Part shown: positions 1 to 34,591 of the stretch, piece after piece
Layout of the letters: every line of letters starts with the position of its first letter
Numbering within the stretch: position 1 is the first letter of the stretch
DNA from: a virus
Taxonomy: Duplodnaviria > Caudoviricetes
Length of the DNA: 35,920 nucleotides
IMG/VR virus record: IMGVR_UViG_3300038379_000092
Span: 1-35,920 of that record
Direction: 5' to 3' (one strand)
Program-made: the position numbers and the translations under genes
Notes under the pieces: generated by a model
Database searches by the model: none
What the model saw: the letters and a program-made list of their open reading frames with translations, nothing else
Told to the model about the DNA's origin: nothing

Positions 1-438
1 GCCGTTGGGCAGAAGGCCGTCCTTGCCAATGGCGTGTGGTATAACGTTGGCAACAAGGCGAACTGCAAGCTCGCCGATTTCCAGAAGGGCGGCACCTACA
101 CGGTTGAGGTCGCCGACTCCGACTACAAGGGCAAGCAGTATCACTTCATCAACAAGCTCGTGACGACGCAAAGTGCCCTTGCCCAGTCCGCGCCCCCGAA
201 TCCCGGCGATCCGCAGCCCGCCGCTAGCCGGACGGAGAGCGGCAAGTCCTACGACTACAAACTGTCGGTCAAGGATTTGGTCATCATCCGGCAGAACGCC
301 ATGAGCAACGCGATGACCTCGCCCCTCATGGCATCCCTGGCCGCGACGGTGACGGACGGCGAGGCGGTTAAAACCCTCGTGGCGGAGTATGCCACCCTCA
401 GCGAGGAGTTCGTTCTTCGCGGGCTGGAAAGACCGTGA
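1..438 (+). CDS. 5'-truncated phage protein, possible ssDNA-binding protein
   Basis: Frame is open from base 1 (AVGQKAVLANGVWYNVG...). Beta-rich N-terminus, Pro/Ala linker and an IIRQNAM motif resemble putative SSBs of environmental phages. Function is inferred. Confidence 0.45.
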   Translation, partial: AVGQKAVLANGVWYNVGNKANCKLADFQKGGTYTVEVADSDYKGKQYHFINKLVTTQSALAQSAPPNPGDPQPAASRTESGKSYDYKLSVKDLVIIRQNAMSNAMTSPLMASLAATVTDGEAVKTLVAEYATLSEEFVLRGLERP

Positions 439-674
439 GCAAGATCGAAGACGGCGGCCTGGCGTTCCCGAACATCAGGACGGAGGCTATGCAGGGGTTC
501 TCCTACGAACATGGTTGCGGTGGGATCACGATCCAGGATGCATTTGCGATGGCGGCATTGAAAGGGATACTGGCTTACGCAGGTGCCGAAAATTGGACGC
601 TCCAAGATCGGGCCGGATTCTGTTACTCCCAGGCCGACGCCATGTTGAAGGAGAGGGAAAGGACTATCGGGTAA
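435..674 (+). CDS. conserved small phage protein (GxTxRDxFAxxA...ADAML family)
   Basis: GITIQDAFAMAALKGIL and YSQADAMLKERE match a widespread phage hypothetical pattern. GTGA overlap with the upstream stop. Confidence 0.75.
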   Translation: MSKIEDGGLAFPNIRTEAMQGFSYEHGCGGITIQDAFAMAALKGILAYAGAENWTLQDRAGFCYSQADAMLKERERTIG

Positions 675-730
675 TCTCAGCACCCTTCGCCGTAAGGCCC
701 TGATGGGCGGGCGCAAGCTGAGAAGTGAGC

Positions 731-771
731 CACGGACCCTTGGGTCCCACCTCCTATCCTGAGGGTCCGTG
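731..771 (+). ncRNA. 14-bp hairpin with anti-Shine-Dalgarno loop
   Basis: cacggacccttggg (731-744) pairs with cctgagggtccgtg (758-771), with two G-U pairs. Loop tcccacctcctat contains CACCTCCT. Confidence 0.55.
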
Positions 772-779
772 CAAACTAT

Positions 780-839
780 GTGGCCCGGAAGCCGCCGTGC
801 TTCCAAAGCGTCGGGGAGTCCACTCCGAGGGCCACACCA
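780..839 (+). ncRNA. truncated tRNA-like RNA ending in ACCA
   Basis: Acceptor-like stem gtggccc/gggccac plus A-CCA. Only two internal hairpins (ggaagc/gcttcc; tcgggg/ctccga). It ends 1 nt before the Ile-like tRNA. Confidence 0.6.
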
Positions 840-840
840 T

Positions 841-915
841 TTGGCGGTAGCTTGATCTAAAGCACCGGACTGATAAACCGGAGACGCAGGGTAAATAATC
901 TCTGTCCGCCAACCA
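841..915 (+). tRNA. non-canonical tRNA-Ile(GAU)-like
   Basis: ttggcgg/ccgccaa acceptor, U8-A9, D stem gctt/aagc, anticodon arm ccgg-a-ctGATaa-a-ccgg (GAT at 872-874), T-like arm gcaggg/ctctgt and encoded CCA. Lacks TTC in the T loop and GG in the D loop. Confidence 0.7.
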
Positions 916-928
916 TTTTTCGGATTAT

Positions 929-1072
929 CCCGTTGGGGGCATTGAGGGCGGTTCGTCACCAAAACGTACGGGTGGGGCGGGGTGGCACGGCGGAATTCCG
1001 CGACCTCTTACCAAGGGTTTCGACCACTTGGGAAGCGCATCATCCAACCGAGCGACCTGGAACCCCAACGGG
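929..1072 (+). ncRNA. putative ~144-nt structured RNA
   Basis: Perfect 10-bp closing helix cccgttgggg (929-938)/ccccaacggg (1063-1072). Internal hairpins gcggaattccgc and ccaagggt-ttcg-accacttgg. Followed by a T-run. Confidence 0.5.
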
Positions 1073-1080
1073 GCTTTTTA

Positions 1081-2215: not shown

Positions 2216-3124
2216 ATGGCTGAGTTCAAAAGATACGTTGAGGTAGAACCTCTCCACAAGGAGGACGTAGAGGGCATCCTTTGCGGGCGAGTTTGGGTTT
2301 TTCCCAAGCTTGACGGGGCGAACTCCTCTATCTTTTTGGACGAAAAGGGGGTTGTGACCGGGGGTAGCCGTAACCGGGCCTTGGGGTCTGGGGCCAAAGA
2401 CAACCATGGGTTTCGGGAAGCATTTGTAAGCCCGAACCAGGGAATGTTGACGGCCTTCTTCAACAGTTTCCCAAATGTTAGGCGGGTCTATGGGGAGTGG
2501 TTGGTCCCCCACACGTTGAGAACTTATCGGGAAGACGCGTGGCGGAAATTCTATCTGTTCGACGTAGAAACGGATGAGGGGTTTCTGCCCTACGAGGAGT
2601 ATAGCTTGTTTTGTGCGGAGGCTGGTTTCAATGTAGTGCCCGCCCTCTCCTCTATTGAGAACCCCACTGAGGAGTATTTGCGCGGGTTCCTAGAGCGGAA
2701 CACGTTTCTGATCGAAGACGGCAAAGGCTACGGCGAGGGTGTTGTTGTAAAAAACTATGGGTTCAGAAACAAGTTTGGCCATAGAGTTTGGGGAAAAATT
2801 GTCCGCAACGAGTTCAAGGAGCAGATGCTTGGCGCATGGCCTACTCCCGAGGCCGCGCTCAAGGTGTCCCCGGAGGCGGAGATTGCACTAAATTGTGTCA
2901 CGGCGGGGCGGCTAGACAAAATCATAGCCAAGATACCCGAGGAAGAACGGGCGGATCGCAAGACCTTCGTTCCCCGTCTTTTGAACACGGCGTACCATGA
3001 GGTAGTGACCGAGGAACTTTGGGACGAATTGAAGCGGCTACGAAACCCCGTCATTGACTTCAAGGCCCTACAGGGCCGAGTTTTTGCGCGGGTCAAAGAA
3101 TTGAGGAAAGAGGTGTTCGCGTGA
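2216..3124 (+). CDS. ATP-dependent RNA ligase, Rnl2-like
   Basis: Nucleotidyltransferase motifs KLDGAN (I), SRNR (Ia), YGEW (III), FYLFDV (IIIa), EGVVVK (IV), GKIV (V). Helical C-terminal domain, no obvious OB-fold. RBS gaggagg. Confidence 0.85.
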   Translation: MAEFKRYVEVEPLHKEDVEGILCGRVWVFPKLDGANSSIFLDEKGVVTGGSRNRALGSGAKDNHGFREAFVSPNQGMLTAFFNSFPNVRRVYGEWLVPHTLRTYREDAWRKFYLFDVETDEGFLPYEEYSLFCAEAGFNVVPALSSIENPTEEYLRGFLERNTFLIEDGKGYGEGVVVKNYGFRNKFGHRVWGKIVRNEFKEQMLGAWPTPEAALKVSPEAEIALNCVTAGRLDKIIAKIPEEERADRKTFVPRLLNTAYHEVVTEELWDELKRLRNPVIDFKALQGRVFARVKELRKEVFA

Positions 3125-7923: not shown

Positions 7924-7932
7924 GAGGCCGCA

Positions 7933-8139
7933 TTGGAAACCCTCGTTGTAGATTGGCAGGATCGCGCTAGTCGCCGGGCCTACCAGCGGCGGTATTACGC
8001 CGAGCGCCGCGAGTTGTGGGCGGATCGCTATAAGTCGCGTGACAAGGAGAAAATTCGGGCCGCCAAACGATTGTGGTATAGCAAACACAAGGCCGAAAGG
8101 AGCGCAGTTATAAATGTAATAGCGGTATTGGCCTACTAG
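7933..8139 (+). pseudogene. probable truncated homing-endonuclease remnant
   Basis: RBS aggagg plus TTG. R/K/Y-rich helical repeats (RAYQRRYYAE, KEKIRAAKRLWY) are typical of HNH N-termini, but there is no nuclease motif. The first 7 codons parallel the polymerase start. Confidence 0.5.
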
Positions 8140-8169
8140 GGGATAAAATTCCTCTTTTGGAGAAAGCGA

Positions 8170-10065
8170 TTGGATACCTTAATCGTTGACTTTGAAACAT
8201 ATTACTCAACAAAGGATTCTTACACACTCAAAAAAATCAGTGCGGCCCAGTATGTCAGGGACGCCCGCTTCAAGGCGTTCGGCCTCGGGTTCAAGAATCT
8301 CACGACGGGCCAAGGAGGGTGGGTCAGTGGCGAAACGAACATCCGCGCCTGGGTCAATTCTGTCAAGTGGGCTGATGTCCTGTTGGTCGCGCAGAATACT
8401 AAATTCGATGGCGCAATCCTGGCTTGGCGATATGGCGCTGTCGCGGGTCGGTATGCGGATACCCTTGCCATGTCCCGCGCTGTTCTCGGAACACGGCTCC
8501 GAAGCCACTCGCTTGAGTCCGTCGCCAAGCACTACGGTTTCCCGCCAAAGGGCGAATTGCGGACGGACGGTTTGCTGGTCCTCTCTCCCGAGCAGGAGAA
8601 AGAACTCGCGGACTACTGCCTTCACGACGTTGAACTTTGCGCCGAAATCTACCAGCGGTTCCTCAAAGAGGGGTTCCCGCAAGGGCAAATGGCGGCGATG
8701 GACTGGACCATCCGAGCCTTCGTCGAACCGGCGCTCAAGCTCGACGAGGAGAAGCTGGCGCAGACGGCGGAGGCCGAGCGTAAGCGGCGGGAGACGATCT
8801 TCGCGGACATCGGCATCCCGAAGTCGGAGTTCTCCTCGAACATAAAGTTTCCGGCTCTTTTGACCAAGGAAGGCTATGAGGTGCCGATGAAGTTGTCTCC
8901 GAAGCAGTTGAACCCGGATGGCACCAAGAAGGCGATCCCCGCCCTGGCTTTGGGTGACAGCGAGTTCCTTGAGATGTTGGAGTCGGACGACGAGCGGCTG
9001 GTAGAGCTATGCGAGGCGCGGGTCGCGGCGAAGTCCACCCTTCTGGAAACACGCAGCGAGAAACTGCTGGCGGTGGCGAAGACAGGTTTGTTTCCGTTCG
9101 ACGTGGGGTTCAGCGGGGCGCAGCAAACCCACCGCTATTCCGGGGCATCCGGGGCAGGCGGCAACCCCCAAAACCTCAACAAGTGCCAAGACCCGGAGGA
9201 ACACAAGACCGGCCACCAGTGCAAGGCTCAAATGCGGGGTAGCGTCACCGTCCCGGACGGTTTTACCCTCATTGTCGCCGACTTCTCGGCGGTTGAGCTT
9301 CGGATTCAGGCGTGGCTGGCGAAGGAAGCCCGGCTCACGGCGTTGCTTTCGACGTCGGATGGCGACCCCTACTCGGACTTTGCAACCAGGCTCTACGGGC
9401 GACCTATTGTGAAGGGGCGGGACAAGAAAGAGCGCGACTTCGGTAAGGAAGTGGTCTTGGGGTGCGGCTACGGAATGGGAGCCGCGAAGTTTGCCCAACG
9501 GGTGAAGATCAAGCTCAAGAAGGATATTACCGAGGACGAGGCTAAGAATACCATCGGCCTCTACCGAGGCTACTACGCCGGGATTCCCCGGCTTTGGGAC
9601 GAGTTGGGCAACTACATCACGTTGCTCTCTCGAAAGGCGGTTGGACGGTTCCGGTTTGCGCCCTTCCTGGGGCTGAAAGACGGCTGCATCATCCTTCCTT
9701 CGGGGCTACGCCTTCAATACCCCGAACTGGCCTACAACGGGAAGGACTGGACCTACAAGGTTTTTCGCCAGAAACGGGCGGAACCTGAGTCGGCCAAGCT
9801 CTACGGTGGGAAACTGCTAGAAAACCTCTGCCAGGCCCTTGCCGGGGAGTTTTGCAAGATCGCCATTGAGCGGGCAACGCGGGCCGGGCTGAAATGCGCC
9901 GGACAAGTCCACGACGAAATCCTGGTCGTGTCGAAGAACGAGAACGTGCAACGGGACACGGACGTGTTGAACCGGGCGATGTCCACGCCGCCATCTTGGT
10001 GGCCTGAGATTCGGCTCATGGCCGAGGTCGGGTCTGGCCCCAACTGGCAAGACGCCAAACATTGA
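8170..10065 (+). CDS. polA: family A DNA polymerase with 3'-5' exonuclease
   Basis: Exo motifs DFETY, NTKFD, YCLHDV. NPQNL; motif A ADFSAVELR; motif B RDFGKEVVLGCGYG; motif C VHDE. Confidence 0.96.
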   Translation: MDTLIVDFETYYSTKDSYTLKKISAAQYVRDARFKAFGLGFKNLTTGQGGWVSGETNIRAWVNSVKWADVLLVAQNTKFDGAILAWRYGAVAGRYADTLAMSRAVLGTRLRSHSLESVAKHYGFPPKGELRTDGLLVLSPEQEKELADYCLHDVELCAEIYQRFLKEGFPQGQMAAMDWTIRAFVEPALKLDEEKLAQTAEAERKRRETIFADIGIPKSEFSSNIKFPALLTKEGYEVPMKLSPKQLNPDGTKKAIPALALGDSEFLEMLESDDERLVELCEARVAAKSTLLETRSEKLLAVAKTGLFPFDVGFSGAQQTHRYSGASGAGGNPQNLNKCQDPEEHKTGHQCKAQMRGSVTVPDGFTLIVADFSAVELRIQAWLAKEARLTALLSTSDGDPYSDFATRLYGRPIVKGRDKKERDFGKEVVLGCGYGMGAAKFAQRVKIKLKKDITEDEAKNTIGLYRGYYAGIPRLWDELGNYITLLSRKAVGRFRFAPFLGLKDGCIILPSGLRLQYPELAYNGKDWTYKVFRQKRAEPESAKLYGGKLLENLCQALAGEFCKIAIERATRAGLKCAGQVHDEILVVSKNENVQRDTDVLNRAMSTPPSWWPEIRLMAEVGSGPNWQDAKH

Positions 10066-13552: not shown

Positions 13553-13595
13553 AAAGGCCCCCCTTACCGTGTCTTGGTAAGGGGGGCTTTCTTTT
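13552..13595. terminator. intrinsic terminator between convergent arms, probably bidirectional
   Basis: 12-bp stem gccccccttacc/ggtaaggggggc followed by tttctttt on + and preceded by gaaa. Confidence 0.85.
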
Positions 13596-13604
13596 GAGAC
13601 GGGG

Positions 13605-33581: not shown

Positions 33582-33827
33582 CTATTTCCTCATCGCCTTG
33601 CGGAACCACTTGCCCCGGTCTTCGGGGAGGACGTAGTGCGGGCCGCCGTCGCTTGGGGAGCTATACCTGTTTGCCGCCTGATCGTCCCGGAACCAAGGCT
33701 CCTGGCCCTGGGTAATCCGCTGCTTGCTCACCCGCCGGAACGCCCGGCTGGACATCTGTTTCCACCACTTCTCGCTGCGGCTGCTCACGTGGGACGCGAA
33801 CGGGCGTTTCTTGTGGCTTCGGCTCAT
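33582..33827 (-). CDS. conserved basic protein (MSRSxKK...KxMRK family)
   Basis: MSRSHKKRP...SEKWWKQMSSRAFRR...DG...KAMRK. RBS gggag. Ends 3 nt before terL. Confidence 0.75.
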   Translation of the reverse strand: MSRSHKKRPFASHVSSRSEKWWKQMSSRAFRRVSKQRITQGQEPWFRDDQAANRYSSPSDGGPHYVLPEDRGKWFRKAMRK

Positions 33828-34281
33828 GGTCGCGCTGCTCCCGCGAAAATTCATCTATCAGCTTGCCCGCAAGGTGATCCAGTTCGTGCTGTACAGCTTG
33901 GGCTTCCAGTCCGCGAAATTTTTCCACCCGGTTCTTGCCGTGCCGGTCTTGGTAGCCCACCAGGATTTCCATGCTCCGGGGGACGTGGTATTCTTCGCCC
34001 GGCAAGCTCAAGCACCCCTCCATGACGATAACCTTACGGCTGGCTTTGAGGAGGACGGGGTTGACCAGTTCAATCCGCTCGTGCTTGGGAAGCTGGACGA
34101 CAGCCACTTGCCAGTCTAGCCCGACCTGCGGGGCGGCCAGTCCAAGGCCGCTCTCCTGCTTCATCGTTTCTGTCATCTCCCGAAGTAGCACCGGGAGGTG
34201 CCCGGCCATCGAGCCAGGGAACTCCACAGGACGCGCTTTTTGGCGCAAAACCGGGTCAAACTTAGAAACGAGTGTGAGCAT
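33661..34281 (-). CDS. def: peptide deformylase
   Basis: All three PDF motifs are present: GLGLAAPQVG, EGCLS, QHELDHLAG. Confidence 0.95.
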   Translation of the reverse strand: MLTLVSKFDPVLRQKARPVEFPGSMAGHLPVLLREMTETMKQESGLGLAAPQVGLDWQVAVVQLPKHERIELVNPVLLKASRKVIVMEGCLSLPGEEYHVPRSMEILVGYQDRHGKNRVEKFRGLEAQAVQHELDHLAGKLIDEFSREQRDHEPKPQETPVRVPREQPQREVVETDVQPGVPAGEQAADYPGPGALVPGRSGGKQV

Positions 34282-34422
34282 GTAAACCGGCGCTCCGAAC
34301 TAGCATAAAAAATCTCGGCTCCCATCGCCTCTGCCGCCTGTGGGAGGGGTTTGTTTTGAAGTTTCCTTCTGGCGATCTACCGAGAAAGGGTGGGGGTTTG
34401 CGTCATTGGTCCCTCAATACTC

Positions 34423-34555
34423 ACCGGCCTTGGCCGACGTTGGTTTCCCAGGATTCCTGGTAGTTTCAGGATGTGCCGGGATTCCCGGTAAAATTGCCCT
34501 CGTTTTTTGGTTGGTGAGGGGAAGGGTCGGGTAAACCCCGACCAAGGCCAACGGT
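34423..34555 (-). ncRNA. structured intergenic element upstream of def
   Basis: Long-range helix 34426-34437/34538-34549 encloses two related palindromes at 34448-34462 and 34476-34490. Confidence 0.5.
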
Positions 34556-34591
34556 CCAGTTAATACCACCCGCGCCCGCTCGGTGGCCCCC

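Follow-up and report, generated by a model that had tools for sequence, protein, structure and literature searches.

A widespread and apparently undescribed structured RNA in a phage RNA cassette and in bacterial tRNA arrays

The RNA cassette and its setting

The DNA analyzed here (the window) is the whole 35,920-nt stretch of IMG/VR record IMGVR_UViG_3300038379_000092, a 35.9-kb phage contig encoding an SU10-like portal, terminase, capsid, Prim-Pol, DNA polymerase A, lysozyme, peptide deformylase and an Rnl2-type ligase (35 proteins scanned). In freshwater DNA run X1, which is probably its source, one contig spans positions 14 to 2381 of the window with zero differences. A relative has its contig assigned to a Nitrospiraceae bin, perhaps through a binning artifact. 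On the plus strand, a cassette of five structured elements spaced 1 to 13 nt apart occupies positions 675 to 1079, with the following features in and around it:

435..674, plus strand: small phage gene (phrog_2201, E 3e-16) whose stop codon abuts the cassette
675..723, plus strand: element 1, a tentatively assigned closed stem with internal loops
731..771, plus strand: element 2, a hairpin of 13 to 14 bp whose loop (748-755) is the 16S anti-Shine-Dalgarno 8-mer
780..839, plus strand: element 3, a 60-nt two-arm minihelix with a 7-bp acceptor-like stem, A and CCA
841..915, plus strand: element 4, a degenerate tRNA-Ile(GAU) with an intact anticodon loop (870-876) and CCA
928..1073, plus strand: element 5, with a closing stem (928-938 with 1063-1073), a conserved core and a 100-nt insert
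940..949, plus strand: 5′ strand of the conserved core of element 5
954..969, plus strand: insert sub-motif of element 5, common to a subfamily, with two differences
1050..1061, plus strand: 3′ strand of the conserved core (21-base core in total)
1075..1079, plus strand: U tract after the closing stem, read from the sequence
2216..3124, plus strand: Rnl2-type RNA ligase gene (PF09414 E 7e-18; phrog_548) with KxDG and following motifs

The gene at 435..674 is the likely source of read-through transcription into the cassette; a search of positions 300 to 2300 found no sigma70-type promoter upstream of the cassette, and the single 9/12 match falls inside the tRNA. All five self-contained folds of a preliminary description were recovered by folding on this strand, at the positions given there. 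Its further statement that no credible CDS crosses the region also held, as none of the six overlapping ORFs matched PHROGs below E 0.2 (an 81-aa ORF at 982 had two weak matches, over residues 23-76 only). The genome is otherwise densely coding, although the earlier wording of “wall-to-wall” slightly overstated this: other gaps of 316 nt (7924-8239) and 310 nt (34282-34591) occur.

Folding energies were compared with those of 200 dinucleotide shuffles per element. The lowest z-scores were those of 731-771 (z −4.5; 0/200 shuffles as good), 780-839 (z −3.6; 0/200) and 841-915 (z −3.2; 1/200), followed by 675-723 (z −2.0; 7/200) and by element 5, folded as 927-1076 (z −1.2; 27/200); the whole region from 666 to 1085 scored −1.7 (6/100 shuffles as good). 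These z-scores are flattered because element boundaries were drawn around the folds. By energy, hardly any shuffle equals elements 2 to 4; element 1 is a marginal case, and element 5 does not stand out. The support for element 5 comes from comparison with its relatives and not from folding energy.

Elements 1 to 3

The five-part array was not borne out as a conserved unit. Element 5 recurs widely, with stems that covary strongly; elements 1 to 3 (675-839) had no convincing homologue beside 168 to 184 core-bearing loci or in 97 relative loci, and nhmmer with each element over those 97 loci gave no match. The 97-locus comparison represents distant relatives, the 19 closest nuclease relatives (56 to 70% protein identity) lying outside it. 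The cassette can still be described as a cluster of tRNA-like and other structured RNAs, as first proposed, but without a homologue of 675-839 the accompanying idea of a conserved 16S 3′-end mimic or mini-tRNA was not sustained.

Element 1 has one partial look-alike in L119, 77 nt upstream of the core, found with a pattern derived from both sequences. The surrounding part of L119 (~2100-2800) is a promoter-led non-coding run of several hairpins around the core. Positions 683-696 of element 1 and the T4 rnaC locus (L334) have a short GNRA-hairpin word in common, likely by chance.

Element 2 falls in the lowest-scoring of 797 60-nt segments of the contig (z −5.4; 22 segments below −3). Its loop 8-mer is identical to E. 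coli 16S positions 1533-1540 and is the sole plus-strand copy in the contig. C-rich loops of some small RNAs bind ribosome-binding sites, and by analogy the anti-Shine-Dalgarno loop could do the same; selection for this is not demonstrable from one sequence. Mimicry of rRNA was considered and dropped. The longest words in common with E. coli rRNA are of 8 to 10 nt (element 1 with 16S 376-385, element 2 with 5S 23-32 and 16S 1533-1540), which is near chance over 30 comparisons, bar the placement of the anti-Shine-Dalgarno word in a loop. Constrained folding did not reproduce an alternative reading of element 3 as an armless tRNA-Trp.

Element 4, a degenerate tRNA-Ile

Element 4 has a cloverleaf with a 7-nt anticodon loop and a 3′ CCA. 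Its 31-39 pair is open, and its D and T loops are without the conserved bases, including the D-loop GG. Read from the sequence, the acceptor can be drawn either as 7 bp without a discriminator or as a 12-bp branch of the 6/6 type with A73. The Rfam tRNA model matched 841-912 with 27.4 bits (E 0.001-0.008), below its cut-off of 29, and ARAGORN called no tRNA on the cassette. The open pair and the eroded D and T loops recur in a tRNA-Ile of a terminase relative (L046, 49%). An exact 32-nt tRNA pattern had 0 matches in viral contigs, as did a contig search with the nuclease alignment, and scans with single proteins yielded no loci of use. The body of element 4 is unlikely to serve in translation. 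Phage tRNAs that counter anticodon nucleases do so, in the available part of PMC10264068, as functional and resistant tRNAs, unlike element 4.

The lack of homologues for 675-839, the sub-cut-off Rfam score and the eroded D and T loops of element 4 would all suit a cassette that is mostly a decaying tRNA cluster, in which elements 1 to 4 are relics or local hairpins and selection acts on element 5 only. We regard this as improbable, since the stems are intact, as are the anticodon loop and both CCA ends, the elements abut within 1 to 13 nt, and L046 retains its tRNA-Ile with the same oddities.

Extent of the element 5 family

BLAST of the cassette against the 97 loci of distant relatives picked out L067, which has two 14-nt blocks identical to the window; the spacing between them is 17 nt in L067 and 96 nt in the window, and the closing stem around them is unrelated in sequence. 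A gapped scan of viral contigs yielded 26 loci, six with both unsearched flanks and the closing stem and 20 with neither flank; a scan of GTDB contigs yielded 64 loci, 32 of them with full flanks (30 Verrucomicrobia records, one Deinococcaceae and one unnamed). A covariance model of 31 members, from which the window was excluded, recovered the window element with E 1.9e-5 and found a variant in L050/L051 among the 97 sources. Applied to one Verrucomicrobia family, that of G001, which the record titles of its members suggest is Opitutaceae, the model matched 26 of 151 genomes; phylum-wide it matched 3 of 151. A core-only viral scan, covering inserts of 10 to 70 nt, found at least 120 IMG/VR loci (~170 estimated). 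Among the matches listed, the closing stem was present in 109 of 120 loci, and 84 of 93 distinct viral sequences passed, representing 46 sequence clusters, with the other nine failing the stem or purine filter; the family counts leave out L143, L132, L155, L151 and L160, which have weak stems or incomplete flanks.

No Rfam 15 covariance model matched element 5, whether in the window, in L067 (where the best E was 2.8) or in a further 20 carrier loci. Cultured phages, searched by BLAST with the cassette and with four family members, and plasmids, searched with one member, gave short chance-level matches only, these searches being insensitive for a split core. No description of such an RNA was found in the literature, where core words returned only unrelated siRNA and miRNA work, and a bioRxiv paper on intergenic features mentions neither tRNA nor phage. 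Supplement files 3 to 6 of Fremin 2023 (PMC10690425) contain no core word and none of four contig identifiers, the alignments falling outside this comparison; the family may be among the ten thousand unnamed candidates of that study. The element 5 family is real and widespread; it is apparently undescribed and is absent from Rfam.

Anatomy and covariation of element 5

From the base up, the closing stem (mostly 7 to 12 bp) is followed by a CA bulge. Two pairs then lead to a G-G opposition, and three pairs to a GA bulge on the 3′ side; after two more pairs comes a second GA bulge, above which a covarying stem of 3 bp carries the free insert. Among the matches listed (84 members), the closing duplex had a mean energy of −15.5 kcal/mol versus −6.0 kcal/mol after partner shuffling. 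In the same members, the pairs above the core, three in number, were kept in 83, 82 and 74, and the lowest core pair, below the CA bulge, was kept in 80 as A-U, U-G, U-A or C-G. In 28 short members 96.8% of cells were paired, a value reached by 0/500 shuffles and compared with at most 39% in slid controls; five core pairs were fixed by the search pattern in this set, and core invariance in the scans was likewise partly imposed by the patterns. RNAalifold, unaided, returned a nearly identical fold. Within the core, a G-C pair is replaced by A-U in 8 of 23 bacterial copies that the model recovered (perhaps one event) and a U-A pair by C-G in one.

The apical insert varies freely from about 14 to 100 nt, the window having 100 nt. 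Among the matches listed, it is a short 3-bp stem with a GAUAAA loop in 4 of 84 members, and the sub-motif at 954..969 recurs in 8 of 84 distinct viral members at an insert offset of 3 to 4. The insert loop of L194 is a full Ile anticodon loop, the same as that of element 4. An invariant core under a free apex of 14 to 100 nt fits a protein-binding site.

Several known motifs were set aside. A kink-turn, defined by tandem G-A pairs beside a 3-nt bulge, was rejected, as the position that should be A holds G in the window and in L123, L130, L133 and L162, and it covaries as a Watson-Crick partner. The consensus structures of the hammerhead, twister, HDV-like and hairpin ribozymes and of SRP helix 8 were dropped, and Rfam matched none of them.

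Downstream of the stem, a U4 tract lies within 30 nt in 39 of 84 members among the matches listed, versus 10% of random places. CCA follows the stem in 21 of 84 (among the matches listed) versus 11% at random and is absent in the window. Promoters were not enriched near the family (14/84 among the matches listed versus 12%).

Genomic context in phages and bacteria

Among the matches listed, 21 of 84 viral members (15 of 46 clusters) have a standard tRNA within 600 nt, against a background of 1.9% at random positions, measured in 104 other viral loci. Every one of the 46 neighboring tRNAs lies on the RNA’s own strand. The family is biased in strand and position towards tRNA genes. The other 63 of 84 have no ARAGORN tRNA within 600 nt, where 21 of the 84 loci are short-flanked (again among the matches listed). 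Around a set of 63 viral loci no conserved neighboring protein family was found beyond close kin, and 17 of them overlap, in one frame or another, with a mechanically called 100-aa ORF.

The strict base identity of the small core and its position between tRNA genes could also mark a catalytic or ligand-binding fold, or a cleavage signal separating polycistronic tRNA transcripts, and small ribozymes beside phage tRNAs are known in the form of theta ribozymes. Such a role is unlikely in our assessment: the RNA is one bulged helix in which no second conserved domain or pseudoknot was seen, it matches no Rfam ribozyme or riboswitch, and many copies lie away from tRNAs and finish in a U tract.

In bacteria, the copies often lie between tRNA-Lys and tRNA-Cys of a long degenerate-tRNA array. 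Of the 32 full-flank genome matches, 20 lie within 1.5 kb of a tRNA on their own strand, and for 14 the number of such tRNAs is at least three. Six Verrucomicrobia loci (L137, L138, L157, L339, L340 and L345) were seen to contain ~20 to 35 degenerate tRNA genes each, in arrays that adjoin a LysR gene, a divergent RtcB gene, and TROVE and HNH genes. A Pfam scan of eight 18-kb bacterial regions, covering 61 of 100 ORFs, found RtcB in two, TROVE in one and HNH in two. Within the one Verrucomicrobia family, RtcB was present in 20 of 26 carriers versus 27 of 125 non-carriers (P = 1e-7) and TROVE in 10 of 26 versus 5 of 125 (P = 7e-6), P values that overstate independence because the genomes are kin and many are incomplete. 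TROVE lies on the same contig within ~4.5 kb in 9 of the 10 TROVE-bearing carriers. These links, drawn from one bacterial family, may reflect one inherited island. In phages, TROVE was found in 1 of 48 carrier records and in none of the 35 window proteins scanned. The earlier proposal of an RNA cluster associated with RNA repair is thus supported in this form: element 5 accompanies tRNA genes and, in bacteria, RtcB.

Element 5 lies on the same strand as its neighbors. In several arrays it comes close to the 5′ end, following Gly and Lys, and in L123 and others it directly precedes a ribosome-binding site, so that it might instead act in cis, as an antitermination or stability element for long tRNA or early operons. 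This is distinctly improbable given the U tract that comes right after the stem in the 39 of 84 members noted above (among the matches listed), the CCA-like ends in a quarter of them, inserts of up to 100 nt, and the copy in L345 that lies near the 3′ part of its array.

Other small RNAs were observed beside the family. In L198, L202, L223, L230 and L266 a second conserved small hairpin with a covarying stem precedes the core by 43 to 44 nt. Short tmRNA-end-like RNAs or a long tRNA-like RNA with a T arm and CCA, for which Rfam gave no match at its cut-offs, lie upstream of the core in L238 and L196 and downstream of it in L115.

The ligase gene

An Rnl2-like ligase had been reported ~1.1 kb downstream of the cassette, and a PF09414 gene does start 1144 nt after position 1072. 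The Rnl2-type ligase is a common phage protein (542 relatives). PF09414 was found in 6 of 48 carrier phage records and in 4 of 16 near-complete ones, all four >68 kb. Conversely, no element 5 RNA was found within 6 kb of 28 ligase loci (0/28), and 0 of 20 whole ligase records held the exact core with a 10- to 70-nt insert. Joint inheritance of the RNA cassette and an Rnl2-type ligase, as the preliminary description implied, is not supported by these counts: of the 16 near-complete carrier phages, 12 lack the domain.

The idea that the phage Rnl2-type ligase circularizes or repairs mimic RNAs as a dedicated system could draw on the 1.1-kb distance in the window, on L228, where a PF09414 gene starts 123 nt downstream of the core, and on RtcB, which in 16 of 26 bacterial carriers (counted from coordinates) shares the contig and is no more than 11 kb away. 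Set against the missing PF09414 genes in carriers and the absence of the RNA from ligase loci and records, we consider it highly improbable. Repair enzymes accompany the RNA family, yet no dedicated pairing was seen, and the weak co-occurrence does not support a role of this ligase as part of a system; it is a neighbor. Directly before the ligase gene lies a 126-nt GC-rich gap (2090-2215) with a strong ribosome-binding site at its end, which folds no better than shuffles (z −0.2).

Comparison with known RNAs

Element 5 resembles the stable RNAs of T4 (RNAC and RNAD) and T5 (RNAI, III, IV, 1, 2, 2H and 3) in being a non-tRNA structured RNA among same-strand tRNA genes. Those RNAs are of 60 to 170 nt and, by annotation, of unknown function, some with a CCA end. 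Unlike them, the element 5 family also occurs in bacteria and across unrelated phages. The core was not found in the T4 and T5 stable RNAs: the best model match over both regions had E 1.1, and no two-strand match was seen at two mismatches each.

The available text of PMC8421152 reports that tRNA L-arrays are induced by translational stress and suggests that their tRNAs may be sponges for toxin RNases. Bacterial element 5 copies likewise lie in long arrays near RtcB, TROVE and HNH genes, but no such RNA is described in the accessible portion of that paper. In the stress-induced tRNA array of Anabaena the element 5 RNA was absent, a weak match (E 0.14) overlapping tRNA-Tyr. Bacterial Y RNAs YrlA and YrlB, as presented in part of PMC4201824, similarly have a long closing stem, Ro60 genes nearby in some bacteria and the company of RtcB. 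Element 5 differs from them in a core without the Ro60-binding motif GNCGAAN(0-1)G (alignments checked by inspection), in having no conserved D and T arms and in having no Rfam match. Polycistrons of irregular tRNAs and allo-tRNAs (PMC5389517, as far as available) are comparable to elements 3 and 4 in their tandem odd tRNA-like RNAs, some charged yet unused in translation; element 4, too, can keep a branch of 12 bp, drawn as 6/6. In those RNAs, which are found beside toxin-antitoxin genes in Acidobacteria, the branch is of the 8/4 or 9/3 type.

A structural parallel to part of the core is the C-loop of 16S helix 15, to the extent covered in the available part of PMC4551918. In the lower core, N-CAH-U stands opposite a purine followed by 0 or 1 base and N, like the helix 15 form that is most common in that paper, and both insertion classes occur. 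The C-loop counterpart in E. coli 16S is 371-375 with 389-390. The C-loop sequence pattern N-C-A-N-U opposite A-(0-2 nt)-N is present, with a purine swap from A to G in the window and a few others. In the extra-base class the extra base covaries as a Watson-Crick partner (46/51), and a plain 2-nt bulge fits equally. The C-loop is a structural module and not a family, and the upper core has no rRNA match.

Proposed role of the cassette

The reading that we prefer, and put forward tentatively as plausible, is that the cassette supplies decoys for host factors. The cluster would be transcribed together with the upstream early genes, and host tRNA-processing enzymes would cut the cluster RNA apart. 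The C-loop-like core of element 5 would bind and sequester a conserved RNA-binding factor of the host, one that comes into play under an attack on translation, and element 4 would present its intact anticodon loop as bait on a body that probably does not serve in translation. The ligase would be a general repair aid rather than a dedicated partner.

A bolder version, possible but doubtful, would see in element 5 a modular class of decoy RNA, with a constant protein-binding core and a swappable display apex that in some copies is a tRNA anticodon loop, the RNA being exchanged between phages and bacterial stress arrays and disarming a conserved host tRNA-damage sensor or nuclease; the phage would field its tRNA, minihelix and anti-Shine-Dalgarno decoys alongside it as an all-RNA counter-defense kit.

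An RNA common to phages and to host tRNA-repair islands points to a conserved translation-stress factor that both sides want controlled. With T4 RNAC and RNAD and the T5 RNAs of phage tRNA clusters still without a function in annotation, the family offers a tractable case of a non-tRNA cluster RNA: more than 100 natural variants, a 59-nt minimal form (L194), natural compensatory mutants and a cultured carrier (L180, an Ereboglobus record) make its partner and role directly testable.

Other features of the contig and its relatives

The gap at 34282-34591 contains long stems upstream of the peptide deformylase gene, with no Rfam match. That gene (33661-34281, minus strand) lies directly upstream of the terminase gene, as it does in relatives L045 and L047. 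One or two tRNA genes (Met, Thr, Ala) are common in terminase relatives (L049, L050, L054, L058-L061, L072-L077, L081 and L085), in many cases immediately upstream of the terminase gene. A very long inverted repeat with U tracts (13555-13597), close to where the early and late gene blocks of the window meet, is likely a bidirectional terminator.
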